Shown here: one piece after another, positions 5,048 to 31,172 of the stretch | How positions within the stretch are numbered: the stretch's first letter is position 1 | How the letters are laid out: each line of letters begins with the position of its first letter | Assembly (NCBI GenBank): GCA_016933055.1 | Contig: JAFGBS010000009.1 | Location: 480,001 to 512,000, forward strand | From: Promethearchaeota archaeon | Lineage (GTDB): Archaea > Asgardarchaeota > Lokiarchaeia > Sigyniarchaeales > Promethearchaeaceae | Reading direction: 5' to 3' | DNA length: 32,000 nucleotides | Notes under the pieces: generated by a model | Told to the model about the DNA's origin: nothing | What the model saw: the letters and a program-made list of their open reading frames with translations, nothing else | The model's database searches: none | Made by a program: the position numbers and the translations under genes

Positions 5048-5440
5048 TTTTTAAACCAAAAAATAAGTGGTGATTGTTGAAAAAACTGCATTTCTTTTTA
5101 ATTTTTCTGAGGTCCAATAAGCTCATTAACCACCATGAGTAGGACTAGTTATTGATTGGGTATTCTATAATAGTGAATTTTCTATTCTTTCGTATATAAA
5201 TATGAGATAATTTTATATCCTACAATTTGGTTCAATAAGCTAAATTATAGATGTAATATTGTGGCTCATCTCAGTGACGATATTAGATCCTATCCTAAAA
5301 GAGATCGAAAAACATGGATTGGATCGTTACATCCTTAAAAACCGAATCATTAAAAAAGCCTAAAAGTAGAGTAAATATATTAGTATAATATAAGAACTAA
5401 GGGCACATTATAACAATAACAAAAATAGGTTTTGCATGAC

Positions 5441-5806
5441 ATGAGTACGGAAGATTCATTAGACAAAATTCTCCGCGACTTGCTATCTTCAATTGCTGAG
5501 ATCAAGGGTGCTGCTATAGTGAGTCCAGAAGGTCTCCCCATAGCAAGTGCACTACGACCAGATGTAGATGAAACACGAATTGCAGCAATGACAGCGGCAT
5601 TGCTGAGTCTTGGAGAAAGAGCAGGTCACGAATTAGACAAAGGCACATTAGAGCAAGTTTATGTGAAAGGGGAGCGAGGATATGTTCTGGTAATGAGTGC
5701 CGGGATGAATGCTGTACTCACTGTGGAAACTACGAGAAATATTCGACTCGGTTTGGTCTTCTTAGATTGTAGGAGAGCGTGCGAACGAATCTCCCATCTA
5801 GTCTAA
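5441..5806 (+). CDS. Roadblock/LC7 domain protein
   Basis: GAAIVSPEGLPIAS, DETRIAAMTAALLSLGERAGHEL.KG.LEQVYVKGERGY, LGLVFLD. ATG 5441 preferred over TTG 5432. Confidence 0.92.
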   Translation: MSTEDSLDKILRDLLSSIAEIKGAAIVSPEGLPIASALRPDVDETRIAAMTAALLSLGERAGHELDKGTLEQVYVKGERGYVLVMSAGMNAVLTVETTRNIRLGLVFLDCRRACERISHLV

Positions 5807-11645: not shown

Positions 11646-12443
11646 TTATGTTAAAAACTCATATATTTCATTCAGTAGTGATTTAATCTGATCATACACG
11701 AATAAATGACCGCACCCATGGATTATAGATAAGGTTGAATGTGGCAAAATTCTAGCTAAACGTACTGCATTTTCTGGTAACACAATTTCATCAAACTCCC
11801 CTGTGAGGATTAATGATTTATGATACACTTGAGTGATCTTCTTCTTAGTGTTAAAGCACATAGCTGCTATTAATTGTTTTCTATAATCTTTTTTCTTCAT
11901 AGGATAATACCGAAAAACGCGTTCAATAAAATCTAGTGCCGTACGACAATGCTTTCCTGAATTTTTGTGGATGCAGAATCCATGTATCAATACGGATAAG
12001 GCATCTGTTTTTAATCCCCGAAAAAGCATATTTAAAACACTCCTTTTAGGTAATTTGCGTTTAAAACTACCTATATCAGGAGATATGAACACCAATTTAT
12101 CCACTTTCTCGGGATACATTATTGCAAACCGTTCCAATATGGCTCCTCCGAGACTATGTCCTAGAAAATTGGATTTTCTTATAGCCAAGAATTCCATAAG
12201 ATAGAATATATCTTTCGAATAAGTTTTCATGGTGTAGAATTTACGTGACCTACCTGATCTACCACAACCCCGATTATCCATTAGAATAACTCTAAAATAT
12301 TGTGACAATTCAGTTACAAGGTTAGGTTGCCATTGCAGCATATTAGATCCTAATCCTGTTATTAAAATTAATGGCCTTGCAGTTTTTTTCCCATATTCTT
12401 CATAGTAGATTGATGTTCCTAGGTAACTTTCCACGTAAGGTAT
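11646..12443 (-). CDS. Alpha/beta hydrolase (enol-lactonase/esterase-like); start is either GTG 12434 or ATA 12443
   Basis: GHSLGG nucleophile elbow, DNRGCGRS, GEFD acid and GCGH histidine give a complete triad. Confidence 0.88.
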   Translation of the reverse strand: MPYVESYLGTSIYYEEYGKKTARPLILITGLGSNMLQWQPNLVTELSQYFRVILMDNRGCGRSGRSRKFYTMKTYSKDIFYLMEFLAIRKSNFLGHSLGGAILERFAIMYPEKVDKLVFISPDIGSFKRKLPKRSVLNMLFRGLKTDALSVLIHGFCIHKNSGKHCRTALDFIERVFRYYPMKKKDYRKQLIAAMCFNTKKKITQVYHKSLILTGEFDEIVLPENAVRLARILPHSTLSIIHGCGHLFVYDQIKSLLNEIYEFLT

Positions 12444-12529
12444 ACGAACACACCCTCAAATGTTTATCCTTGATAAATAATGAATTCTTCAAAAATATTA
12501 ATCATTCGGCACTGCTTCAAGGTATTATC

Positions 12530-13579
12530 ATGTCTGAGAATAGGTGGCAAGTTAAGGAGCAAGTAAAAAGGAAAAACGCTCAAAATCCTGATTTTAACTT
12601 AAAATCTCTTGAATATATTACACAAAACCAAATTGAGACAGAAGAGTTAGTTAAAAACGCAAATAAATCATATCAAGAAGGAAATTTTGGAGATTGTGCG
12701 AAAAATTTCCGCCAATTAGCACGAATCATAAAACAACTTGAGAATACTATTGAAATAAAAGGGAATTATGATATACGAAATACTCTAAATGATTTAACTG
12801 GTAAAGAATGGTTACGCCATACAAAATCTTGGCTCATTGTCGATGGTAAACCCTCTGACATTGTATATAACATCAAGAACCATCCTGCTTCTTTTCCCCC
12901 CACTCTCGCATCTCATTTCATCGAGTTTTTTACAAAAAAAGGAGATTGGGTTTTTGATCCCTTTATGGGAATTGGCAGTGTTCTAAAATCTGCTCAAGAT
13001 TTGGAAAGAAATTGTTGGGGGATAGAATTAAACCAAAAATACCAAGAATTTGCACATAATCGATTAACAGCAAATAATTCTTTAGTTCTTGAGGTCACTC
13101 ATGGGGATGCACGAAATGCTGTTCCATTATGGGAAACTAGGAACTTTCCAACGATGGATTTTGTGATTACTTCTCCCCCCTATTGGGATATGTTAGGAAA
13201 ATCTCGCGGAGGAGTTATGTCTACATCAAAGCAGAGGGTTGAGAATGGCTTGGATGAAACATATAGTGATGATCCAAATGATCTTGGAAATATATCAGAT
13301 GTAGATATATATTTAGATCAATTATATGAAATTTTTGCCAATTTGAAGAAAATTCTATCTCCGAATGCCTATTTACTTGTGGTGATGCAAAATATCCGTA
13401 AAAAGGATGGAGAAATGGAACCTATTGCCTGGAATTTCGCAAAAAAAATGAAGAAGTCGTATTCATTGAGACAAGAATTCATATGGTGTCAAGATCAGAA
13501 ATTCATGGGTATTTGGGGGTATCCTAAAATTTACGTATCGAATGTCCACCACCACTATTGTTTAGTGTTCCAGAATTAA
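12530..13579 (+). CDS. Orphan amino-DNA methyltransferase (N6_N4_Mtase family, SPPY suggests m4C), permuted motif order
   Basis: HPASFP, DPFMGIG (motif I), GIEL, GDAR, then TSPPYW (motif IV). Start moved to ATG 12530 because the longer track ORF overlaps the divergent hydrolase. Confidence 0.85.
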   Translation: MSENRWQVKEQVKRKNAQNPDFNLKSLEYITQNQIETEELVKNANKSYQEGNFGDCAKNFRQLARIIKQLENTIEIKGNYDIRNTLNDLTGKEWLRHTKSWLIVDGKPSDIVYNIKNHPASFPPTLASHFIEFFTKKGDWVFDPFMGIGSVLKSAQDLERNCWGIELNQKYQEFAHNRLTANNSLVLEVTHGDARNAVPLWETRNFPTMDFVITSPPYWDMLGKSRGGVMSTSKQRVENGLDETYSDDPNDLGNISDVDIYLDQLYEIFANLKKILSPNAYLLVVMQNIRKKDGEMEPIAWNFAKKMKKSYSLRQEFIWCQDQKFMGIWGYPKIYVSNVHHHYCLVFQN

Positions 13580-13668: not shown

Positions 13669-14544
13669 ATGAAGAGATGGATAAAAAAAAATCAATTACT
13701 TTTGTACCTTTTCCTCACTTATCTGATAGCATGTATTGCAACGATTCTTCATAATGTATTCGGCATTCATTTCATCTCACAATCCAATCTAACGTTCCCT
13801 GCTGTAATTTTGTGGGTCTTCTATATTTTTAGCCCTACCATCTCAGGATTCTTAATCACAACATTTGTAGAGGGAAAAAAAGGCATCCTTAACGTTATCC
13901 GAGGATATACCATAGTAAAAGTAAATTGGTTTTGGTATTTTGGAGCTTTAATTCTCTTATTGGCACCTTTATCTATAGGATTTATTTTTTTCATTCTAGA
14001 AAAATCTCCCGGTCCAAGTGATAGCATTTCTGTTGGAAATATATTCTACTTAATTGGATTTGGATTATTATCGGGACCTATTTCAGAGGAGGGAGGATGG
14101 AGAGGTTTTATGCTTCCTAAGTTAGAATCGAAACACAATGCTTCGGTCTCCAGCCTAATACTTGGATTTACGTGGTATGTTTGGCATATTCCTCTTTATT
14201 TCATCGAAGGAACAAGTCAATATGAATCCTTGCAATATGGTATAGTGTCTTCCATAGTCTCAATTAGCATTTATTGGGTTTTAGTAATGGTTATTGCCCA
14301 AATACTAACCTTTTTGTACAATAATTCCCGTGGGAGTTTAATTATTACAATTCTAGCACATTTTTGCTTTAATTTTAGCAGCACTCTAATTTTAAATTCC
14401 GGACTCGGGTTGTTAGAACCGATGACATTCAACATCGTGGGTAGTATATTAGCAATAGCATATTTGGTACTGATATATGCTGGTTTTGGGTATCAGAACA
14501 TGTCCCGCAAAGATAAAGATAAATTACCGTTTAATCGGTCTTAA
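13669..14544 (+). CDS. CPBP/Abi family intramembrane metalloprotease (type II CAAX protease-like)
   Basis: EEGGWRG, W..WHIP and HFCFN motifs in a polytopic membrane protein. Confidence 0.92.
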   Translation: MKRWIKKNQLLLYLFLTYLIACIATILHNVFGIHFISQSNLTFPAVILWVFYIFSPTISGFLITTFVEGKKGILNVIRGYTIVKVNWFWYFGALILLLAPLSIGFIFFILEKSPGPSDSISVGNIFYLIGFGLLSGPISEEGGWRGFMLPKLESKHNASVSSLILGFTWYVWHIPLYFIEGTSQYESLQYGIVSSIVSISIYWVLVMVIAQILTFLYNNSRGSLIITILAHFCFNFSSTLILNSGLGLLEPMTFNIVGSILAIAYLVLIYAGFGYQNMSRKDKDKLPFNRS

Positions 14545-14557
14545 GATTCCAGATTCG

Positions 14558-14890
14558 CTAAAGACCGCGAGCTTTTTTGAGACGCGCTTGCCTTAATTTT
14601 CGTTCTTTCTCCCATTTCTTACCACAAAACTTACAATATAATCCAAAAAGACTCTGATCTTCAATCTCAAATGGTTTGGCACATTTTACACAAACAGAAT
14701 GATATTCAAACCAATAAGCTTCATGATCTGGATCAATCTCGATTTCTTTTTCCTTTGAAATCCCGCATTGGTTACAATAGATCCCCGACAGAATTGCTTC
14801 GCCATCATAAAACATTTTACCGCATTTCACACAGCAGTTACTTTTGATTTCGTTCCATACAGGTTTTGAGTTTTTCCGAATTTTCTCCAT
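14558..14890 (-). CDS. Small protein with two tandem C4 zinc fingers and a basic tail
   Basis: CVKCGKMFYDGEAILSGIYCNQCG and CVKCAKPFEIEDQSLFGLYCKFCG have identical CxxC-x15-CxxC spacing. Confidence 0.7.
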   Translation of the reverse strand: MEKIRKNSKPVWNEIKSNCCVKCGKMFYDGEAILSGIYCNQCGISKEKEIEIDPDHEAYWFEYHSVCVKCAKPFEIEDQSLFGLYCKFCGKKWEKERKLRQARLKKARGL

Positions 14891-14943: not shown

Positions 14944-17916
14944 TTATGATGTTTTAATTGGATCTTCTTGAAGATTATCAATGTTAGTTTTTGATTGTAA
15001 TTTGGATAGAACTTTTCTCAGATATTTACCAGTATATGAACGGTCATTGACCGCTATTTCTTCTGGTGTTCCGGAGGCAATGATCTCCCCCCCGTTTTCA
15101 CCACCTTCTGGTCCCAAGTCAATGATATAATCCGCACTTTTAATTATGTCCAAATTATGTTCAATTACAACTACTGAATTGCCTTGATCGACTAATCGTT
15201 GAAGAGCTTTTATCAGAATCTTTACATCATGGAAATGTAAACCTGTAGTGGGTTCATCCAGCAAGAAAAGCGTATTTCCTGTGGAGCGTTTAGATAATTC
15301 TCTGGATAATTTCATTCTCTGTGCTTCTCCACCACTTAACGTAGTGGAGCTCTGTCCCAACTCAATATAGCCCAAACCGACATCAACAACGGTTTGTAAT
15401 ATTTCGTTTATCTTTTGATTATTTTCGAAGAATTCTAATGCTTGGTTGTGGGTCATTCGCAAAACTTCGTAGATATTTTTACCTTTATATTTCACTTCTA
15501 AAGTTTCTTCATTATATCTTTGCCCTTGACACACATCACATTTCACGTACACATCAGGGAGGAAATGCATTTCAATAAGGTTATACCCCAAACCACCACA
15601 TTTTTCACACCTTCCCGCTTTTGTATTAAACGAAAAACGACCTTTCTCATATCCTCGAATCTTTGCTTCTTCAGTTTTTGCAAAAGTGTCTCGTATATAA
15701 TCGAAAGCTTTTGTATATGTGGCTGGTACTGATTTAGGAGTTCTCCCAATCGGGCTCTGATCAATGTTAATTATTTTATCAATATATTCCAATCCTTCGA
15801 TAGTGTCATATTTTATGTGCAATCCTTTCTTCTTGCGGCGTAAAGATTCTTCTACTGCGTTGAGGAGAACTTCCTGAACTAATGATGATTTACCAGCACC
15901 CGAAACGCCCGTTACACATGTAAACACTCCTAGTGGAATCTCTGCAGTAACACTTTTCAGATTATTTTCCCGAGCACCACTGATACGGATTCTAGATTCA
16001 GAGAGAGGCCTTCGAGATTTAGGAAGGCATATTTTCTCTTTTCCGGATAAGTATCTGCCTGTGATAGAACGTGGATTATTCATAACTGTTTCTAAATTAC
16101 CCGTTTCTACGATTTCTCCTCCTTTTTCCCCTCCAAATGGTCCGATATCCACAATGAAATCCGCAGCGCGTATCACATCTTCATCATGTTCCACAATTAG
16201 AACGGTATTTCCTCGCTTCTTTAACTCAATAAGCATATTGATCAACTTAGACTTATCTCGGGGATGCAGGCCTATCGTAGGTTCATCAAGTACATAAAGT
16301 ACTCCCACAAGATTTGATCCAATTTGTGTAGCTAATCGAATGCGCTCACTTTCTCCACCTGAGAGAGTACGAGCCACACGGTCCAATGAAATATAATCTA
16401 ATCCAACATTTTCTAGGAAAAAATACCTCGAATGAATTTCTTTAAGGATTTCCTTAGCAATCGTTCGTTCCCGTTTGGATAATTTTACACAGTTGAACCA
16501 ACGAATTGCTTCGGATACATACATCCGTGATACTTCCCATATGTTTTTGTCATTGATAGTTACAGCAAGACTAACTGGTTTTAATCGTTTTCCTTTACAT
16601 GCGCTGCATTCGTATTCACGCATGAATTGTTCATACCACTCTCGCATCCCTTGGGATTTTGTTCTCAAGTATCTATTCTGAAGGATGGTAATAATACCTT
16701 TAAACGGACGCTTATACCTGACACTAAAATGTACTTCATCTTCGTCCTCTTCTTCTTCATTCTGTGAATCATATCCTCCATTACGTTCAAAATTAAAGGA
16801 AATTTTTTCTTTTCCCGTTCCATATAGGAATTTATTCCAAAATTCATCAGGAAGATCATCAATGGATTGAGTAATGTCCACATTGTAATATTCTGCAAGA
16901 GCTTCGATGGTTTTCCAACTCCAACTATTAATTGAACCAAACCCTCCCACTCGGGTCAACCCGCTATCATAAAGATTGACGGATGTATCGGGGAATATTT
17001 TAGCCTCATCAAAATTTAGAACGGTTCCTAAACCTTTGCAAAATTCGCACATTCCGTAAGGAGTGTTGAAGCTGAAGTCCCTAGCTTGCAGTTTTTCATA
17101 CGAAACACCACACTCGGGACAGAAAAAGTGCTCTGAGAATATTTTGGAATCTCCATTTACTATGGAGATTTTTACTAGTCCTTCAGCAAGTTTAAGGGAT
17201 GTTTCGATAGAATTAGCTACACGTGAACGGAATTCATCATCTTCTTCCGTTTTCATAATCAACCGGTCAACAATAACATCAATATCATGTTTGATATTCC
17301 TATCCAAGTTAATAGGTTCCTCTAAAAGGTATTCAATGGCTTCTTTTCCTTGATCTTGAATCATGATCCTTGAATATCCACTTTTCTGCAACTTCAGGAA
17401 TAATTTTTCATAGGTTCCCTTTTTTCCCCGTACCATGGGTGCAAGAATCTTGAATTTTGTTCCGGTGTTAAGAGATTGCAGAATTTCATGGATAATCTCT
17501 TGACTGCTTTTTGGAGTAATTTCTCTTCTACATATAGGACAATGGGGAATTCCGATATTTGCCCATAATAATCTTAAATAATCATAAATTTCGGTAACCG
17601 TACCCACAGTTGAACGTGGGTTTTTTGAGACGGTTTTCTGTTCAATTGCAATAGCAGGAGACAATCCCTCAATATAATCAACATCTGGCTTATCCATTCC
17701 TTCTAAAAACTGGCGTGCATAAGCAGAAAGGGATTGTAAATATCTTCGCTGACCCTCTGCGTAAATAGTATCAATCGCTAAACTAGACTTACCGGAGCCA
17801 CTTAGACCAGTAAATACAACCAATTTATCACGTGGGATTTTCACATCAATATTTTTGAGATTGTGTTGTCGTGCGCCTTTTACAATGATGTATTTGGAAT
17901 TATTGGGATTGGTCAT
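14944..17916 (-). CDS. uvrA: Excinuclease ABC subunit A
   Basis: [20 protein letters not shown], two ABC cassettes ([37 protein letters not shown]) and zinc modules. Confidence 0.98.
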
Positions 17917-18094
17917 TTCTATGTTACCGTTTCAAGATCTTCAATTTAGTCCCACTTTTTGAGTTTACTACTTTGAATTAAAAAGAAGAATGCGCTGGAG
18001 AAATAATTAATTGAGGAAAAAAAACCGCAACTTATTGATAATCTAAGTATTGATCTACTTTTATTAATCCAAATTACAAGTTGCTTTTGAAGTA

Positions 18095-19555
18095 TTAGAC
18101 ATATATATTTTCCTTGGGATCGGGGGGGTCTGTATCTTCAATAGGGAATGTATCTTCTTCCAAGATTTGGGTTAATTCCCATTCCCGTTCGTTTCCTTCT
18201 CGATCAAATACTCTCAGGAGATCTAAGGAACTTTCCCCTTTGGTCGATCCAAGAATCATATTAATATAGTACATGTTGAAAGTTTGACGATCTTGATCGG
18301 AGGGAATTGGGGGACCGAGAGTATGGGAATGAATGAATCCTACAATACTCGTATCCATAAAAGGAATTTGGTCTTTATAATATCCGGTTGCAAAAGGAGT
18401 AGAAAAATATCTTGCTGGGAGCCGGAGACGCCATATTACCCATCTATCTAGCTGTACAAAACCACCCATCTCGTTTGGAGCATGTTCCTTGGCCGTTTGT
18501 TTTGCTAAGTTAAGGAACTGCTGAGATATTTGGATTTTTCCAAATCCATAAAATCCTAAACATGCTTTAAGTTCCCTTAGGACTTCTGTTAAGCTATAAG
18601 GTTCACTCTTCAGCCACGTCCGGAGGGAATATAACCTATCAGACAAGGATTGAGTAGATAATTTTTCTACAATAAAAACGGGGAATTCAAATTTTGGAGG
18701 ATCGGGATAATCACTCAAATCCATGAAAACTGCATAATTTTCTCCTAAATCGACGGAATACCTATTTTCATAGTTATCTAATTTCTCAATAGTGAACATA
18801 TTGGACGCTTTCTTAATTTGTTGGGATACGTTGAAGATTTGCTCTTTAATTCTCGTTTTTTTTTGTGCAATTAGTTCTTTCAACCTAGGAGGTGTATATA
18901 ATTCGTCCACTTTTCTTTCAAGTTCGCTATAAGATGGATATTTCCTTATAATTTCCATATCTTTTGGCTCGAGTGTATCAAAAGCATTTATTGCAGTCTT
19001 AAATCGTCCTTTAAATTCTAACAGTAGTGTTCGAGCTAAATCTTGATAGGATTTTATAAATAAACTATTCTCAGGTTCAAGCGTATAAGCTTCTTTATAC
19101 ATATTTAAAGCATGCTCGAAATTTTTTAATTTCTCATACTGGGTTGCTGCGAGATACGTCGCTAGTTGAGCTACTTCGGGATAATTATCGCGCATATACT
19201 CGCATAATTCTACAGCCACACCTGGTCTTTTTATTGAAATAATTATTTCTGCACGCTTTAACAATGCTTCCGCAGGTTCTCCCTCAATTGTATCCAGTTT
19301 TTGATACTGTTCTATTAAAAACCCCTTTATATCTTCCATCATTTTCCCTAAACATTCGTGATTTTCCGAAAGCCGATGCGTGGAACAAAATTTCTTCCCA
19401 CAATATGTGCATTTATTCATATAATTTTGGATTTTGATATTGCAGTAATAACAAAGCTCTAAATTTTCGTAATTATTTGATAATTCCTCGTATAATTTGT
19501 TCTTTTTTTGTTTCCTTATTGTTAAACCCCTCCTATAGAAACATATTAAAAACAA
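18095..19555 (-). CDS. Multidomain AN1 zinc finger / TPR / UEV(E2)-like / JAMM (MPN+) metalloisopeptidase; start is either TTG 19555 or ATA 19519
   Basis: AN1 ligands CYYC..CTYC.KKFCSTHRLSENHEC; TPR-like YEKLKNFEHALNMYKEAYTLEPEN; DYPDPPKFEF...LRTW...LTEVLREL; JAMM PNEMGG...HSHTLGPPIPSDQD. Confidence 0.8.
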   Translation of the reverse strand: MFLICFYRRGLTIRKQKKNKLYEELSNNYENLELCYYCNIKIQNYMNKCTYCGKKFCSTHRLSENHECLGKMMEDIKGFLIEQYQKLDTIEGEPAEALLKRAEIIISIKRPGVAVELCEYMRDNYPEVAQLATYLAATQYEKLKNFEHALNMYKEAYTLEPENSLFIKSYQDLARTLLLEFKGRFKTAINAFDTLEPKDMEIIRKYPSYSELERKVDELYTPPRLKELIAQKKTRIKEQIFNVSQQIKKASNMFTIEKLDNYENRYSVDLGENYAVFMDLSDYPDPPKFEFPVFIVEKLSTQSLSDRLYSLRTWLKSEPYSLTEVLRELKACLGFYGFGKIQISQQFLNLAKQTAKEHAPNEMGGFVQLDRWVIWRLRLPARYFSTPFATGYYKDQIPFMDTSIVGFIHSHTLGPPIPSDQDRQTFNMYYINMILGSTKGESSLDLLRVFDREGNEREWELTQILEEDTFPIEDTDPPDPKENIYV

Positions 19556-19557
19556 TA

Positions 19558-21540
19558 TTATTTTATACTTTGTGCTAGTTCTTTTATTTTATCCCGAAGA
19601 AACGCTGCTTTCTCGAATTCTAAATTATCCGCATACTCTCGCATCAAAGAATCCAATTCATTAAGTAAATCAATCTTGTTTGCTTCTTCTTCAATTCTTT
19701 CCTCAATGGTTTTTTTAAGTGTGCTCTCCGCTTCTTCTTCATCTATAACTTCACGTGAAAGGGATTCTCTTAGTTGTTTTTGGATAGTTTGCGGTGTAAT
19801 ATCATGCTCCCTATTGTATCTAATCTGTTTTGCGCGCCTTCGATTGGTTTCCGCAATTGCTTCCGTAATGGATTTAGTAATTTTATCTGCGTATAAGATT
19901 GCTTTTCCATTTACATTCCGTGAAGCTCGACCAATAGTTTGGATTAGGGAACGTGTATTTCGCAGAAATCCTTCTCTATCCGCATCCAATATAGCAACAA
20001 GGGAAACTTCTGGTAAATCTAATCCTTCTCGTAGCAAATTAATACCCACAACTACTTCAATTTCACCTGAACGTAGTTTTCTCAAGATTTCTGACCGTTC
20101 TACTGTGTCAATATCACTATGAAGATACTTTATTTTTATACCCCGCTCGGCATAGTATTCTGCTATGTTTTCTGCAAGGCGTTTTGTTAATGTGGTTACA
20201 AGAACTCGTTCATTTCGTTGAACCACTTGTCGAATTTCATTTAATAAATCTTCGATTTGATCCTCTGTTGGTCGAATTTCAGTCTGAGGATCTACTAAAC
20301 CGGTGGGACGAATCACTTGATCAGCAATAAGCTTGCTTCTCTCCAATTCCCAATCCCCGGGAGTGGCACTGGTGAAAATAATTTGGTTGATTTTGTTATC
20401 CCATTCAATAAATTTGAGAGGACGATTGTCATACGCTGCCTTTAAACGGAAACCAAAGTCAATAAGATTCTTCTTTCTTGAAATATCTCCTCCTATCATT
20501 CCGTGTACCTGTGGAACTCCTATGTGACTCTCATCCATCACCATTAGATAATCATCGGGAAAATAATCCAAAAGCGTGTAAGGCCTCTCCCCGATCTTCC
20601 TACCATCAAAATAGCGAGAATAATTCTCAATTCCTTTACAAGTCCCAAATTCAAGAATAGTTTCAAGATCATAGTTCGTTCTCTGCTCTAATCGTTGAGC
20701 TTCCGCATATTTTCCTTGTTTTTTGAACTCTTCCACCTCATCGTTGAGATCTTCTCGAATTTGTCTTATAATAGCTTCCAACACTTCAAAATTTGTAACA
20801 TATTCACTAGCTGGAAACAGAAATATTTCATTCACATTTCGTATTGTTTTTCCCGTATATGGATTTACTTCATGAATATCTTCCACCTCATCGCCAAAAT
20901 AAAAGAGCTTGTACCCTAAATTCATCTCTGCGGAGTAGATTATCACAGTATCACCTTTGACTCTGAATAGTCCTGGGCGTATCTCGATATCGTTTCGAGC
21001 ATAAGAGATTTTAACCAATTTTTGGGAAAGATCCCGAATACTCAACGTTTGTCCTTTTTTTATTTTTATAATGCTCTCCTTACGGAAATTTGGGTCACCA
21101 GAAGCGAATATACAGGAAACTGAGGCAATAACTATTACATCACGCCGAGTTAATAATGAACTCATAGCCTTTAAACGATACCAACGGATCTGTTCATTGA
21201 TATCCAGATCTTTTTCAATATATAGACCTTTTTCAGGTACATATGCTTCCGGTTGATAATAATCATAGTAAGAGATGAAATATTCTACTGCATTGTCTGG
21301 AAAAAGTTCCTTCAACTCTTGATACAATTGTGCAGCTAGTGTTTTATTTGGAGCCATCACAATAGTTGGACGTTGCACTTTTTCGATGACTTTCGCAATA
21401 CTAAAAGTTTTACCCGTTCCAGTCGCTCCAAGTAAAGTTATGTATTTATCTCTACGATTGAGAGCATTCACAATATCTTGAATTGCTGTAGGTTGGTCCC
21501 CTTTTGGCATATAGTCAGATTTAACCCTAAACTCGTCCAT
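19558..21540 (-). CDS. uvrB: Excinuclease ABC subunit B
   Basis: GATGTGKT, beta-hairpin YYDYYQPEAY, MDESH, GINLLREGLDLPEV, C-terminal UVR domain LEFEKAAFLRDKI; GGTGA SD. Confidence 0.98.
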   Translation of the reverse strand: MDEFRVKSDYMPKGDQPTAIQDIVNALNRRDKYITLLGATGTGKTFSIAKVIEKVQRPTIVMAPNKTLAAQLYQELKELFPDNAVEYFISYYDYYQPEAYVPEKGLYIEKDLDINEQIRWYRLKAMSSLLTRRDVIVIASVSCIFASGDPNFRKESIIKIKKGQTLSIRDLSQKLVKISYARNDIEIRPGLFRVKGDTVIIYSAEMNLGYKLFYFGDEVEDIHEVNPYTGKTIRNVNEIFLFPASEYVTNFEVLEAIIRQIREDLNDEVEEFKKQGKYAEAQRLEQRTNYDLETILEFGTCKGIENYSRYFDGRKIGERPYTLLDYFPDDYLMVMDESHIGVPQVHGMIGGDISRKKNLIDFGFRLKAAYDNRPLKFIEWDNKINQIIFTSATPGDWELERSKLIADQVIRPTGLVDPQTEIRPTEDQIEDLLNEIRQVVQRNERVLVTTLTKRLAENIAEYYAERGIKIKYLHSDIDTVERSEILRKLRSGEIEVVVGINLLREGLDLPEVSLVAILDADREGFLRNTRSLIQTIGRASRNVNGKAILYADKITKSITEAIAETNRRRAKQIRYNREHDITPQTIQKQLRESLSREVIDEEEAESTLKKTIEERIEEEANKIDLLNELDSLMREYADNLEFEKAAFLRDKIKELAQSIK

Positions 21541-23169: not shown

Positions 23170-24024
23170 TTGAATTTGCTGAAAATAAAAAATGTATTTA
23201 TTTTTGATTTAGATGGGACGATATATCTGGGAGAACACCTCATTCCCGGAGCAAAACAAGTCGTTGAGTACCTTCAACAAAAAGGTGCTTTATTGTACTT
23301 TTTAACTAATAATGGTTCCAAATCTCGGAAAGGGTTTGTTGATAAATTACAAAAAATGAATATCATAGTTTCTGAGGAACAAATACTATCTAGTGGATAT
23401 GTTACTTCACTGAAACTGGGAAGAAAACCAAATATACATAATATTTTTGTAATCGGATCTAATGAACTTATTTCCATGATTGAAAACGAAGGACTTACTA
23501 CCCTTAATTCCCAATATTCTGATTCACAACTATATGCTCCAATCTTAGATGGTTCAATCCATGCAGATGCAATAGTTACATCGATAGACATTCATTTCAG
23601 CTATGCAAAAATACGAACCGCAATGGAATTAATACATCGTGGTGCCGAATTCTATGCAACAAATGGAGATACAACTTTTCCAGAAAAATCTCAGCTATGG
23701 CCTGGAGGGGGGGTAATGTTAAAAGCTGTTGAAGCTTGTGTGGGAAAAGAACCCAACGAAATATTTGGGAAACCAAATATCGCAAGTTTAGAAATGATTT
23801 TAGATCAAGTTAAAGAAAAAGGTTTTAGTAGGAAGGACATGATCTTGATTGGAGATAGATTAGAGACGGATATTCTTCAAGCGAATCGAATGGGAATAGA
23901 ATCCGTCTTAGTGGAAACTGGGGTGAATAAATTCACTGATATCGAGAGTCTTCCTGATAGGGACCAAAGAAAAGAATTGACCCCGACCTATATGATCTCT
24001 TCCATTAAGGATTTACTAAATTAA
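23170..24024 (+). CDS. HAD-IIA phosphatase (NagD/glycerophosphatase-like)
   Basis: DLDGT motif I, LTNN, GKP and GDRLETDI; TTG start immediately follows the upstream TAG. Confidence 0.92.
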   Translation: MNLLKIKNVFIFDLDGTIYLGEHLIPGAKQVVEYLQQKGALLYFLTNNGSKSRKGFVDKLQKMNIIVSEEQILSSGYVTSLKLGRKPNIHNIFVIGSNELISMIENEGLTTLNSQYSDSQLYAPILDGSIHADAIVTSIDIHFSYAKIRTAMELIHRGAEFYATNGDTTFPEKSQLWPGGGVMLKAVEACVGKEPNEIFGKPNIASLEMILDQVKEKGFSRKDMILIGDRLETDILQANRMGIESVLVETGVNKFTDIESLPDRDQRKELTPTYMISSIKDLLN

Positions 24025-25031
24025 AAATTTCGTGGCATAGGTACTTCGAATTTCAACAGGGATTCTGGGAGCTCATCTTGAGTAACTTTAGCAAATTCTA
24101 AGGATGCTGCACCAATAACATATTCTCTATTTTTCTCATCAGCTTTGAAGCGGAGGAATCTTCCTTTCGCTAATTGATGTGCAATATTTGGGTAATTATT
24201 ACTATCATGAATATAATCTGAAGTTGAATTTACTACAAAAATCTCTTGGTGAACTTTATGAAGATTCCCAAAAAGACTGAAGTTCCGAACATGGTTAGCA
24301 GCCCTTTTCCATTTCCATATTTCTGCGTCATCAACAACTGCATTCACCCTTTCTAATTGACGTTTTTCCTTCATATCTCCAATCCTTTTTTTCTTGAGGA
24401 ATGGTTTCATTAATCTTAGTAAAGGAACGGGCAAAATCGGAGCAATAAATGTTATGAATCTTGAAAATGTAAATTTATACATTGGATCCAGAAGCACAAT
24501 CGTAGGAGCGTTAACAGTACCATCCATTAGGCCTTGGAGGATCATTGATGAGCCCCAACAAGTTCCAACTAATACAAAATCCCGTTTATCTAATCCTAAA
24601 TGATGTATAGCAATTCCAATATCTTTTGCTTTTTGGGACATATTGAATTTTGCCAATCTTTTCATACGGCTGGAAGTTTTTTCCCGAGTTTCTAAATAAT
24701 ATAGTTCACAACGTTCATGCATGATTTCGTAGTAATCCTCGAATGTGATTGGCGGAACTGCCCAACCTGGGACTAAAAGAATCGGTCGTTTTGCGATGGG
24801 ATTATCTGGTTTGAAGTGTATAACTCGGATCTCTCCCCCGTCAACTGGAACATGAATGTGGTCCCCTTTTTCATATTTCCAGAATTCTGGAACGTTGTCT
24901 TGATATTTATCTGAAATGAGCTCGCTTGTGTCTTCTTCAATTTCTTCAAGTGATCTTGGGAGTGAGAGAATTTGACCATTAAATAACTGAATAACATCTG
25001 TTTGAGAATTTATCTTAAACACCGTGTTCAT
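24021..25031 (-). CDS. Alpha/beta-fold hydrolase with G-x-C-x-G nucleophile elbow
   Basis: PILLVPGW oxyanion strand, VLVGTCWGS elbow, IVLLDP; ATG 25031 preferred as start. Confidence 0.75.
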   Translation of the reverse strand: MNTVFKINSQTDVIQLFNGQILSLPRSLEEIEEDTSELISDKYQDNVPEFWKYEKGDHIHVPVDGGEIRVIHFKPDNPIAKRPILLVPGWAVPPITFEDYYEIMHERCELYYLETREKTSSRMKRLAKFNMSQKAKDIGIAIHHLGLDKRDFVLVGTCWGSSMILQGLMDGTVNAPTIVLLDPMYKFTFSRFITFIAPILPVPLLRLMKPFLKKKRIGDMKEKRQLERVNAVVDDAEIWKWKRAANHVRNFSLFGNLHKVHQEIFVVNSTSDYIHDSNNYPNIAHQLAKGRFLRFKADEKNREYVIGAASLEFAKVTQDELPESLLKFEVPMPRNF

Positions 25032-25253
25032 TATTGTTAGAGATTGGTAAGAAAAATTTCTACTACATAAAAAGCATATGAAAATTAACATCATAATGTC
25101 ATCATTTTATACAGACTACTACTAGGGTTTCCGTAATTTATTGAATTGTTCACCTCTACATCGATTAAACTTTTAAACCATCAATAATATCGAATAAACT
25201 GTTAGATTAGGATCTGTTATTGGTATCAACTCTGCTTATTATGAAAAAATTAC

Positions 25254-27716: not shown

Positions 27717-28940
27717 TTATCTCCTGATCCTTAATTGAGTATATCTTTTATCAATACTCAATGGTCCATTCTGATGAAAAAAGCGAACGTTCTTATATTG
27801 GTAATTATCCCAAATATGCGAATCAAATAAATTAGGATAATTTTTCATTGGTGTACACGTATATTCATTTTTAGAAATTGATATGATAGAAGGAATTATC
27901 CTAAATTGAGGGATATGGAAATATTGAATAATTTTTTGCAGTGAATGTAAAAATTCAGATAAATAACAATGATGAAATCTCAAATCTACATACAATCCTT
28001 CATAACTTTTTCCATTGATTAAATAATCTACCTCATAGGTTATACTAAACGGTAAGGTCATAAAAAGAGAAATAAATATACTCTTTTGTTTTGCATCCAT
28101 AGGATATAAGAGAATAATAATACGATGGGGAAATGGGTGTATTTTATCAAGTTTGGGCAAAAACCATATCATATTTTTTCGATGTAGTCGTACAATTTTG
28201 GTGAAAACTGGGAGGTTTTTGAATTTTTTAATATTTTGGTCATAAATTGACTTTATTAAGTTATAATCATAAGATGTAGGGGGAATTGTTTTTTGATTTT
28301 TCTGGTAATGTAATGATATTGGTTGATCTTCAATTTCTGGCAAATTTCCTGTGATCAAATTATTCGCAATTAAATCCCACGTTCCAAATTTTGTTGTATT
28401 ATCCCATAACAAAGAAGCATTAAACCAAACATGTTTCGTTTTAACACGTAAGATGATTAAATCAGATAGGTAATTCCATCTTAGTAGTGAATGAAATACA
28501 TTATATGGAGGTGAGTGAAAGGGGAATATAAAGTGCAAAAAATTAGTTTGGAAAAATCCTGTATTTGTAGTTGTATAAATTTCCTTTAGTCCAGGTACAC
28601 ATAAAAATTCCCTTGTGGATATCGGCTGAGATTGGGATTTGTGGTAAAAAACTTCTTTTCTGATTTTCAATAAGATAATATATTCCTCTAAACCGAAATT
28701 GGGCCAATTTAATTCTATTCCTACATCGTTTATCTCATATTTTGATTCCAAGAATTTCTTTGTATCTTTCTGCTGTACAGAATGAAATACTTCTGTTATT
28801 TTGAGTAATCCTACTGTATTAGTGAGGTAATCGTTTTCTTCTTGGTTTAGGATTTGTCGGATCTTAGTATCAGATAACGCTTTCAGATTTATCTTCTCAT
28901 CTAAATTATAATATTCAGATAAAATTTCCCTATTAATCAT
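27717..28940 (-). CDS. Hypothetical protein, possibly a divergent duplicated Lrp/AsnC-like regulator
   Basis: 407-aa ORF; LNWPNFGLEEYIILL resembles the Lrp linker p....lGL plus beta-strand; PTSYDYNLIKSI resembles the start of a second HTH. Confidence 0.5.
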   Translation of the reverse strand: MINREILSEYYNLDEKINLKALSDTKIRQILNQEENDYLTNTVGLLKITEVFHSVQQKDTKKFLESKYEINDVGIELNWPNFGLEEYIILLKIRKEVFYHKSQSQPISTREFLCVPGLKEIYTTTNTGFFQTNFLHFIFPFHSPPYNVFHSLLRWNYLSDLIILRVKTKHVWFNASLLWDNTTKFGTWDLIANNLITGNLPEIEDQPISLHYQKNQKTIPPTSYDYNLIKSIYDQNIKKFKNLPVFTKIVRLHRKNMIWFLPKLDKIHPFPHRIIILLYPMDAKQKSIFISLFMTLPFSITYEVDYLINGKSYEGLYVDLRFHHCYLSEFLHSLQKIIQYFHIPQFRIIPSIISISKNEYTCTPMKNYPNLFDSHIWDNYQYKNVRFFHQNGPLSIDKRYTQLRIRR

Positions 28941-29063: not shown

Positions 29064-31172
29064 CTATGGTGCTTCTATAAAGGAAATTAAAGGTAATTTA
29101 GATTTGCATGCAGTCTCCCATTGATATTTCTTTAATTGAGGTATAACTCTTCCATATTCGAGATTCCATCCTTTTGGTATATTATTGTAAATTTTCCGCA
29201 ATTCACCTTGAAATATTTTAAAAAGTGAACTACGATAAGTTGATCGATGATGCGAGGGAAAAAAATAGTAATCAAAATAATCGTTCATACTGAGATTGAC
29301 GGAATTTGATAGATCAGGTACTACCATATTTTTTGCGATGTAGATATTTAACCTCGTCTCGAATTCCTTCAGTATGGCGGCATCTGGTAGTTGGTGAAAC
29401 TGAAGAAGGAATTTTTTATTTTGATCGATTACTTTTGCTTCGTACTTCTGTGGGTTATACTTCACATCAATGTAAAATAAGATAGTATTAATGTTTTTAA
29501 CAATCTCGGCAATTTTCTCAGAACTTCCAGTTTGATTAAGAATTTGGTCTATTAGGGATATTACAGGATATTTTAGCTGTTGATCTGGAATATATTTGTT
29601 TTTAACACATGAATCCATAAAGTATTGTAGATTGTTTATCTCATTAGTCAGTTTTACAAATAATTTTGAATTTTTCTTTCTTATTGAATTAAATTCGTTA
29701 ATACTTTCGGATTTTTGGTAATTTTGTAAATGTGTCAATATGGTTTGCCATTTCTTGAAGAAAAATGTCTCTTCCATAAGGGATAAATAAACATTATCAA
29801 CACAATCTTTCAATGTCATTATCCTATCTGTAATAAGACACTTTGGTAATATCTGAACAATTGTCCTTGAGCATTTGGACAGATTTTCTTGATATTCACT
29901 TAGATTCTTTTGGAAATTATCCAAGTCTGAAATCAACTTCCTGACTTGATTCTTGATGATTTTAACGTAAGAATGATTGATACTTTCCAAAGGAAAGCCC
30001 ATAAATCCTCCCAATCTTAACAAATAAAGGAAAATACTATCGAGTGCATCTATCTTGTGAAAAGTTTCAGAGGAGGTTTCCCATAGTACTTTTTTATACT
30101 CAAATGTAGATAGTGATGGATTAAAATGATTATTTACGATTTGTTCAGCATATTTCTTTCCAACAATTAGAAAATAATCTAAAATAGTGCCCATTTCCTT
30201 TAATGTATTAAAAAAACGATTCATATAGCTTATATCGCGATGAGGAACAATCATTACTCCATAAAAAACTGGGCAGGATTGAGATAGATTTTCGAACAAA
30301 TATAAGGAGGCACCAATTGATTGGAGTACATATTTCAGTAAATGACAATTAATTTTTGGAGGAACTTGGATGAGATAAAATACATAATTTAATCCCAGTG
30401 TATCGATATGAGCTGCATAAATGAAACTCACCCCTTGATTTGCAAATTTCTTCCAAAGCTGTTTTAGATGGGTGAAATTTGTTTGCCATGGATTATTTTT
30501 AAGTCCTGGAATGGATATTGATGGAATTTTTTGGAGGTATGTTTCGAATTCTTGTATGGAGTATGGAAGCTTATTTTTATCAAAAAACTGGGACATCACA
30601 ATCAATAGCGATAACTCCTCGAGTGTATATTTCCAGTTATTTGTAATCCAAAAATCATCAATAAGATTGTCTAGAAATACATAATCATCATGGACAATAA
30701 AATTACTCGTTTGATTTAGACGTTTTATGTAATTATTATAATAAAAGTCTACATTTTCATCGGGCAGTAATAAAGGAATAGCATTTAACATTGCATTCGC
30801 TAAATCCGAATGAGCTTTGATTTTTTTTTCAATAATGGGACGAGTTAATTCAAAGTATCTGGATAATGAGGATTTAGTTCGAATTGATAATGGCGAGTTT
30901 CCTTTTAAGAGTTTTTTGTAGTTATATAAGAGTATAAGACCATTATCACGCAGTGGTTTAGGAATAAAGGATAAAAGCACATGTTTTGCAATAATACCTT
31001 TTCCTATTTCATTAAATCCGTTCTCTTGAGCATATTTTAACTCGTTTAGTATATCCGAATGAGGAACTAGGGTTCTGATAGGTCGAACTATTCCCAAGTC
31101 CTCCTGGAAAAATTTTAAGTAGGTTTCATATGTTTTAACATAATAATAATCCAGTGTATCTGACGCAACCAC
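29064..31172 (-). CDS. Large hypothetical protein with Lrp/AsnC-like repeats and helical insertion
   Basis: 702-aa ORF; AHIDTLGLNYVFYLIQVP linker, FYGVMIVP, IDALDSIFLYLL, followed by a long heptad-like helical region. Confidence 0.5.
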   Translation of the reverse strand: MVASDTLDYYYVKTYETYLKFFQEDLGIVRPIRTLVPHSDILNELKYAQENGFNEIGKGIIAKHVLLSFIPKPLRDNGLILLYNYKKLLKGNSPLSIRTKSSLSRYFELTRPIIEKKIKAHSDLANAMLNAIPLLLPDENVDFYYNNYIKRLNQTSNFIVHDDYVFLDNLIDDFWITNNWKYTLEELSLLIVMSQFFDKNKLPYSIQEFETYLQKIPSISIPGLKNNPWQTNFTHLKQLWKKFANQGVSFIYAAHIDTLGLNYVFYLIQVPPKINCHLLKYVLQSIGASLYLFENLSQSCPVFYGVMIVPHRDISYMNRFFNTLKEMGTILDYFLIVGKKYAEQIVNNHFNPSLSTFEYKKVLWETSSETFHKIDALDSIFLYLLRLGGFMGFPLESINHSYVKIIKNQVRKLISDLDNFQKNLSEYQENLSKCSRTIVQILPKCLITDRIMTLKDCVDNVYLSLMEETFFFKKWQTILTHLQNYQKSESINEFNSIRKKNSKLFVKLTNEINNLQYFMDSCVKNKYIPDQQLKYPVISLIDQILNQTGSSEKIAEIVKNINTILFYIDVKYNPQKYEAKVIDQNKKFLLQFHQLPDAAILKEFETRLNIYIAKNMVVPDLSNSVNLSMNDYFDYYFFPSHHRSTYRSSLFKIFQGELRKIYNNIPKGWNLEYGRVIPQLKKYQWETACKSKLPLISFIEAP

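Follow-up and report, generated by a model that had tools for sequence, protein, structure and literature searches.

The window analysed here is a 32,000-nt stretch of the genome of a Promethearchaeota archaeon (G000:C17:480001-512000; assembly of 3.76 Mb in 36 contigs, 91% complete), and the subject of this report is an open reading frame (ORF) located on its reverse strand between the genes uvrB and uvrA. The ORF encodes a four-module protein, confirmed here as genuine, in which an AN1 zinc finger and tetratricopeptide repeats (TPR) precede an inert domain of the ubiquitin-conjugating enzyme (UBC) fold and a JAMM (JAB) metalloprotease domain with an intact active-site motif (Table 1). Domains were called by Pfam with family cut-offs, by Foldseek and VIA-align fold searches with AlphaFold (AF2) models, and by sequence search of the PDB.

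Table 1. Coordinates of the four-module ORF, its modules and motifs, and the surrounding uvr genes (window positions, unless a locus is named; aa, amino acids).
Feature	Position	Strand	Remarks
Whole ORF	18095..19555	-	486 aa from TTG; AN1 - TPR - helical linker - UBC-like - JAB - acidic tail
AGGAGG Shine-Dalgarno-like hexamer	19529..19534	-	Inside 5' end of longest ORF; read from sequence
AN1 zinc finger	19352..19453	-	aa 35-68; eight ligands all present
TPR-like helical hairpins	19001..19276	-	aa 94-185; about three repeats and a capping helix
Helical linker	18851..19000	-	aa 186-235; AF2 secondary structure; only in four-module clade
Inert UBC-fold (UEV/RWD-like) domain	18542..18850	-	aa 236-338; YPDPP 283-287, W314
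Minimal JAMM/JAB metalloprotease	18164..18541	-	aa 339-464; Pfam Prok-JAB, Foldseek, VIA-align
E362 codon, catalytic Glu of JAMM motif	18470..18472	-	P-x-E, P360 invariant
H409-S-H411-x7-S419-x2-D422 zinc-binding JAMM signature	18290..18331	-	
uvrB	19558..21540	-	Pfam UvrB_inter, UvrB, Helicase_C, UVR; stop 2 nt before the TTG of the ORF
uvrA	14944..17916	-	Pfam UvrA_inter, UvrA_DNA-bind, ABC_tran; 178 nt downstream of the ORF
T8 tract	18017..18024	-	ca. 70 nt after ORF stop, ahead of uvrA; read from sequence
Unrelated uvrB-uvrA inserts in two other lineages	L100:3670-4518 and L121:401-1480		

Domain composition of the protein

The JAB domain scored 31.5 bits against Pfam Prok-JAB (PF14464; cut-off 25) and is a member of the JAMM/MPN+ group by both fold and motif. 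It was aligned to AfJAMM with a Foldseek E-value of 1e-7 and a VIA-align Z of 16.1 (1r5x; root-mean-square deviation, rmsd, of 1.6 A over 100 residues), and to PfJAMM1 with Z 15.2 (5ld9). Rpn11, the Caldiarchaeum Rpn11 homologue, BRCC36 and CSN5 were matched as well, and the catalytic domain of Sst2 at Z 12.3. The domain is of the minimal prokaryotic AfJAMM type and not an MPN domain of the BRCC36/Rpn11 type; NCBIfam returned a weak desampylase match. All 9 four-module proteins, and most standalone relatives, keep the JAMM signature. The uvr context also brought a RadC-like nuclease or repair JAB into consideration, which was rejected on a Z of 8.0 for RadC against 16.1 for JAMM deubiquitinases.

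With 8 sequences as input, AF2 gave a full-length model of poor overall quality outside the TPR part (predicted local distance difference test score, pLDDT, 50.5). The model of aa 225-486, built from a deeper alignment of 36 rows (A3), reached a pLDDT of 89.6 and a predicted template modelling score (pTM) of 0.83. In the top 50 VIA-align rows every non-JAB row was a UBC-fold protein, with Z 7.0-8.7 over 92-102 of the ca. 103 residues of the domain. For aa 236-338 these included UBE2E1 (Z 8.7, rmsd 3.2, 92 aa), the Tsg101 UEV domain (Z 8.6, 98 aa), Ubc8 (Z 8.4), the UEV-like domain of VPS37A (Z 8.1), Vps23 UEV (Z 7.5) and GCN2 RWD (Z 7.1). These matches are uniform in fold and span the whole domain, and on the predicted model membership in the UBC superfamily is supported.

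The residues that mark an active ubiquitin-conjugating enzyme (E2; PF00179), i.e. the HPN motif and a catalytic Cys about 8 residues before the Trp, are absent from this domain. There is no HPN, the residue eight positions ahead of W314 is Asp (Glu, Gln or Asn in relatives), and the sole Cys of the domain, C332, is located in the final helix and unconserved in the wider family; the E2 of the same genome has both HPN and Cys. Across the family, P284 and W314 do not vary. Since the fold matches are to UBC proteins only, these two residues are invariant and the E2 Cys position is replaced, the assignment to a dead UBC-like domain is supported. The first-pass annotation, made from the letters alone, had placed such a segment at about aa 260-335 on the basis of its YP..PP and Trp hallmarks, in the absence of HPN and catalytic Cys, and had rated this as its weakest call. 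The hallmarks and the two absences were borne out, and the fold search that it had proposed for the middle segment returned UBC-fold proteins; the extent needed adjusting, as the domain is somewhat larger (aa 236-338).

At the sequence level, Pfam run on 24 aligned members of the family gave only weak BRE matches (2/24, E 0.04), and alignment of the domain with the genome's E2 by hhalign covered no more than 17 columns at the YP motif. When PDB sequences were searched with a profile of the UBC-like domain, chance matches alone came back, and the ESM Atlas search for it gave nothing usable. The family profile also matched single domains in Asgard proteins of ca. 550-690 aa, in which Pfam finds RWD, UQ_con, BRE and FANCL_d1. 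In the source genome a 618 aa protein (L146:673-2529, contig C22) was matched twice, in tandem domains (E 1e-15 and 2e-11); it has UQ_con above cut-off, a weak RWD match and a Cys-rich C-terminus. These matches relate the domain by sequence to proteins with recognised UBC-fold families, and so back the UBC-like call independently of the fold search. The layout of this protein recalls FANCL (E2-like and RWD domains plus RING), and similar proteins of ca. 550-590 aa are common in the order.

The N-terminal finger is an exact match to the AN1 pattern C-x2-C-x10-C-x2-C-x4-C-x2-H-x5-H-x-C, with 32.5 bits against Pfam zf-AN1 (PF01428; cut-off 27.9). The PDB sequence search with this region returned AN1 fingers at E 5e-5 to 4e-4, including that of Cuz1 (5ij4, E 3e-4). 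Pfam TPR matches at aa 96-166 stayed below cut-off in the window protein, and the aligned region of the homologue P0010 gave TPR_1 (E 5e-10), TPR_2 and TPR_17 above cut-off. In the AF2 model aa 94-185 are folded into helical hairpins with pLDDT 70-89, for which Foldseek returned TPR proteins with weak E-values (0.03-0.1). On the P0010 profiles and the modelled hairpins together, the region is assigned to the TPR group. The linker that follows (aa 186-235) has no counterpart in the ca. 220 aa proteins described below. Eight AN1 ligands, TPR-like helices at about aa 95-163 and a complete JAMM signature had been read beforehand from the letters, and all three held up: the finger by exact pattern and Pfam score, the helices by the P0010 profile, AF2 hairpins and Foldseek, and the protease by motif, Pfam and fold.

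The idea of a Rosetta-stone relationship to a separate family of ca. 170-195 aa AN1+TPR proteins was rejected, with BLASTP showing only the finger (aa 35-68) in common. The finger-sharing proteins (ca. 170 aa; L072:8055-8552 and 19 similar loci, L073-L091) combine an AN1 finger with HEAT-like repeats, and in 16 of these 20 loci the gene is located directly downstream of a gene of ca. 800 aa which by eye is glycyl-radical enzyme-like.

The start codon of the ORF is uncertain. The deposited gene call comprises 414 aa and begins at M73, leaving out the AN1 finger. No ATG is present upstream of the finger at the window locus, at locus L001 neither ATG, GTG nor TTG, and two orthologous loci are without a canonical start well upstream of it. 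These facts favour a reading in which the AN1 part is untranslated and the true product is the three-module protein from M73, which we nevertheless regard as very improbable. The ratio of nonsynonymous to synonymous change (pN/pS) is 0.20-0.27 over codons 10-72, with synonymous sites near saturation, so the AN1 finger is coding. Every orthologue reaching that far keeps all eight zinc ligands, and the finger is included by NCBI and other callers in P0003, P0005, P0010 and P0011. Moreover, the AGGAGG hexamer and the conserved peptide after it are common to the window and both orthologous loci (3 loci). The features of this start region (19337-19555) suggest non-canonical initiation or coupling to uvrB.

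The two-domain family and the uvrB-uvrA neighbourhood

Eight relatives of the four-module protein, at 55-61% identity, were found in a collection of 5.8 billion proteins, and an exhaustive profile search added only two further full-length relatives, P0010 and P0011. The same profile search recovered proteins of ca. 215-245 aa in which the alignment runs through both the UBC-like and the JAB domain. In a phylum survey of 400 species-representative genomes, full two-domain matches were present only in the order of the source organism (families f1-f4), and outside this order only JAB-alone or UBC-like-alone matches occurred. The UBC-like and JAB domains thus form a two-domain family of ca. 220 aa which is widespread in the order. 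The four-module protein was present in the source genome only among the 400; this search of Asgard genomes for the same architecture, as recommended in the first-pass annotation, accordingly places it as rare. When 78 modules were placed in a tree, the four-module proteins grouped as a single clade (Shimodaira-Hasegawa-like approximate likelihood ratio test, SH-aLRT, 100) on a long stem, and therefore the AN1 finger, TPR repeats and linker are a lineage-specific addition to an older two-domain unit, carried by a rare monophyletic sub-clade. The first-pass annotation had noted neither the two-domain family with its active and dead members, nor this addition, nor the location of the gene between uvrB and uvrA.

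The best-matching standalone copies all keep the JAMM motif. In a second, well conserved clade the HxH and Glu positions are replaced (11 rows, SH-aLRT 100). This dead clade spans three genera, and six genomes have it alongside active copies. The source genome has one such paralogue, a standalone UBC-like+JAB protein of 226 aa (L122:6005-6685; G000:C2:257804-258484), as does its congener G131, and these queries turned up no further active two-domain copy in the 91%-complete source genome. The nearly complete genomes G235 and G248 showed a dead copy only with this query, and many genomes have an active copy only. Just downstream of the dead paralogue in the source genome there is an ORF of 367 aa (L122:7895-8998) that by eye is actin-like.

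The gene lies on the same strand as its two uvr neighbours. The uvrB-X-uvrA order, where X denotes the four-module gene, recurs in two other assemblies, in which X is ca. 61% identical and the shared gene order downstream of uvrA has eroded. Of 30 relatives in the order, about 22 lack X and have uvrA directly after uvrB. Two other lineages hold unrelated inserts at this site: in one it is a short-chain dehydrogenase/reductase (SDR) gene in opposite orientation, in the other a radical-SAM-like gene in the same orientation. As most relatives pair the two genes directly and others carry unrelated inserts, the gene is an insertion into an ancestral uvrB-uvrA pair, placed immediately downstream of uvrB; insertions seem to be tolerated in this spacer. 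Neither P0010 nor P0011 is located near uvr genes; the P0011 gene immediately follows a Cdc48-type double-AAA gene. Within the window the gene is probably co-transcribed with uvrB. By its sequence, the T8 tract may be an archaeal terminator that ends a uvrB-X transcript, which would leave uvrB and X on one transcript and uvrA on another.

Directly downstream of uvrA there is a 110 aa zinc-ribbon protein (14558-14890, reverse strand) with a sub-threshold DUF7564 match. On the forward strand, the window encodes a Roadblock/LC7 protein (5432-5806), an N6/N4 DNA methylase (12371-13579) and an Rce1-like CAAX protease (13669-14544). Three reverse-strand ORFs of 357, 407 and 702 aa (24021-25094, 27717-28940 and 29064-31172) had no Pfam match at E 1e-4, and over 26-32 kb of the window the G+C content drops from ca. 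0.35-0.38 to 0.30. The rest of the window is housekeeping, with an aIF5B-like GTPase, ribosomal proteins S6e and L7Ae and an Rpb7-like subunit.

Proposed function and competing explanations

The source genome contains a ubiquitin-type conjugation system. An operon on contig C16 comprises ubiquitin, the activating enzyme E1, E2 and an Rpn11-like protein, and two E2s are present in the genome. A second ubiquitin-type protein of 84 aa is encoded on the contig of the window, ca. 8.6 kb beyond the window end (L014:1486-1740, reverse strand). It ends in Gly-Gly-Asn, and the operon ubiquitin in Ala-Gly-Met; from these termini, both would need C-terminal trimming of one extra residue. There are also three ThiS/MoaD/SAMP-like genes, and the operon E1 is one of three strong E1-like matches.

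With this setting, the best explanation, and in our judgement a probable one, is a genuine four-module protein in which a core of dead UBC domain and JAMM would cleave modifier bonds and the AN1 and TPR modules would recruit. Judged from sequence and models, the protein is most likely a targeted deubiquitinase. Its working core would be the inert UBC-fold domain packed against the minimal zinc JAMM with its complete active site. In an Asgard ubiquitin, or a ubiquitin-like modifier (Ubl), the (iso)peptide bond that follows the C-terminal Gly-Gly would be hydrolysed by the JAMM. The dead-E2 domain may bind the modifier, or an E2 or ubiquitin ligase (E3) partner, non-covalently, and in this way position or select the substrate, and the lineage-specific AN1 finger and TPR repeats would direct the enzyme to a partner, either a protein or a complex. 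We infer that ubiquitin is the substrate, that the UBC-like domain binds and that AN1 and TPR recruit; what the data themselves establish are the domain identities, the intact catalytic residues, the lost E2 residues, the two-domain family with its distribution, purifying selection on the AN1 region and the ubiquitin system of the same genome. The AN1 proteins Cuz1 and ZFAND1 bind Cdc48/p97, and together with this the position of the P0011 gene beside a Cdc48-type gene gives a hint at what the finger may recruit. The combination of ubiquitin reader, scaffold and eraser in one polypeptide, which had been suggested from the letters, is plausible.

Several observations weigh against this explanation. 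The Z-scores of the UBC-like domain (7-8.7) are middling by VIA-align's own note, and Pfam gives the domain no UEV (PF05743), RWD (PF05773) or UQ_con match. The missing canonical start at the two orthologous loci counts in the same direction. Among the neighbours of 20 standalone members none was common to more than 6 loci, and these loci thus provide no pathway pointer. Finally, the modifier may be other than ubiquitin, since the JAB is of the AfJAMM/desampylase type and three ThiS/MoaD/SAMP-like genes are present. The complex prediction of aa 225-486 (A3) and zinc with the 84 aa ubiquitin scored 0.00, which gives no verdict and was not used either way.

A rather unlikely alternative is a protease of the desampylase or maturation kind, whose targets would be ThiS/MoaD/SAMP-like proteins or Ubl precursors in place of ubiquitin conjugates, with the UBC-like domain only a structural partner of the JAB. 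Its best matches are indeed minimal prokaryotic JAMMs, i.e. AfJAMM and PfJAMM1, the latter bound to SAMP2; there is the weak NCBIfam match, the genome holds three ThiS-family and three E1-like genes, and both ubiquitin-type genes end with a residue to be trimmed. A UBC-fold domain hard-wired to the protease, however, points to E2-type ubiquitin chemistry, and the dedicated Rpn11-like JAB in the ubiquitin operon could perform the maturation. We also considered, and found unlikely, that the protein pairs, as the active (MPN+) partner, with the dead (MPN-) UBC-like+JAB paralogue in a heterodimer, as an archaeal counterpart of Rpn11-Rpn8 or BRCC36-Abraxas. The 226 aa paralogue with its replaced HxH and Glu positions, its place in a conserved dead clade that spans three genera and accompanies active copies in six genomes, and the lack of another active two-domain copy found in the 91%-complete genome would all fit such a pair. 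On the other side stand the dead-only G235 and G248 (nearly complete; this query), the many genomes with an active copy only, and the fact that the active and dead genes are unlinked.

Decidedly unlikely in our estimate is a repair-linked factor that works with uvrB and uvrA by stripping ubiquitin or Ubl marks, trimming protein adducts at lesions, or regulating the turnover of UvrA and UvrB, which would mean a eukaryote-like modifier system coupled to bacterial-type excision repair. The same-strand placement with gaps of 2 nt to uvrB and 178 nt to uvrA speaks for it, as does the survival of the arrangement in two genomes at only ca. 61% identity while synteny past uvrA decayed. Yet about 22 of 30 relatives have the uvrB-uvrA pair without the gene, the standalone members examined have no conserved neighbour, and the JAB resembles RadC far less than JAMM deubiquitinases (Z 8.0 vs 16.1). 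Because the distant four-module relatives P0010 and P0011 are located elsewhere, and because unrelated SDR and radical-SAM-like inserts occupy the same site in two lineages, the tie to excision repair is weak. A more far-reaching proposal, to which we give little credence, would take the UBC-like+JAB family, active and conserved dead members alike, as an Asgard forerunner of the eukaryotic BRISC/BRCA1-A-type assemblies, in which a JAMM deubiquitinase is joined by UEV domains and an inactive MPN partner; the active member would here have acquired AN1 and TPR for targeting and been wired into uvrB-uvrA, with ubiquitin-type signalling acting on excision repair.

Relation to known systems and implications

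The protein shares with AfJAMM (AF2198), Pyrococcus JAMM1 and HvJAMM1 the ca. 120-residue JAB fold and the E...HxH-x7-S-x2-D zinc site. AfJAMM, Pyrococcus JAMM1 and the Haloferax desampylase HvJAMM1 are single-domain proteins, whereas in the Asgard family a UBC-fold domain always stands ahead of the JAB, and the four-module clade adds AN1 and TPR. In the complexes BRCA1-A and BRISC (BRCC36 with Abraxas/ABRO1 and BRE/BRCC45) a JAMM deubiquitinase is likewise combined with inactive UEV domains, and further likenesses are the pair of active and inactive JAB forms in the family and the weak Pfam BRE matches on related domains. There the components are separate subunits with an Rpn11-type MPN, but in the Asgard protein they are fused and the JAB is minimal and prokaryotic. 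With a JAB of AfJAMM type, the parallel to BRCC36 and BRE drawn in the first-pass annotation is therefore one of logic, the joining of a JAMM with a UEV.

Fusion of a UBC-fold and a JAB in one polypeptide, or their association in one operon, is known from the bacterial E2-E1-JAB triple-module proteins and operons, for which inactive E2-like (RWD-like) domains have been proposed to bind Ubl (Iyer, Burroughs and Aravind 2006, PMC1779556). The bacterial fusions contain an E2 with active Cys and an E1 in between, while the Asgard family has neither E1 nor that Cys and its UBC-like domain is placed directly by the JAB. These fusions, together with the inactive E2-like domains in JAB operons, are the nearest described systems. 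The AN1 finger is similar to that of Cuz1, and one relative lies beside a Cdc48-type gene, which recalls the Cuz1 and ZFAND1/ZFAND2B adaptors; those adaptors carry a ubiquitin-like domain or ubiquitin-interacting motifs and no protease, unlike the Asgard protein. AMSH/STAMBP resembles it in having a helical interaction module upstream of the JAMM (MIT there, TPR here, with a weak Pfam MIT match), but has ubiquitin-specific insertions and lacks UBC-fold and AN1 domains, whereas the minimal JAB of the window protein is without these insertions.

The architecture was not found in Pfam, NCBIfam or the searchable literature (AN1, JAB, RWD and UEV in Asgard archaea; E2-JAB fusions), and public annotation sees only the JAB domain or the AN1 finger. 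The first-pass annotation had not recognised it, in agreement with the lack of any described family or paper found here. JAMM and UBC-fold domains are each well known; it is the permanent fusion of an inert UBC-fold to a minimal JAMM that is missing from these sources.

Asgard archaea are the prokaryotes closest to eukaryotes. The family is confined to one Asgard order, where it has separated into active members and conserved inactive ones. It therefore provides a simple and expressible model for the question of how deubiquitinases first gained ubiquitin-reading domains and pseudo-enzyme partners. The four-module version is a testable case of domain accretion for targeting, and its position between uvrB and uvrA provides a cheap way to ask if an archaeal ubiquitin system touches bacterial-type DNA repair.

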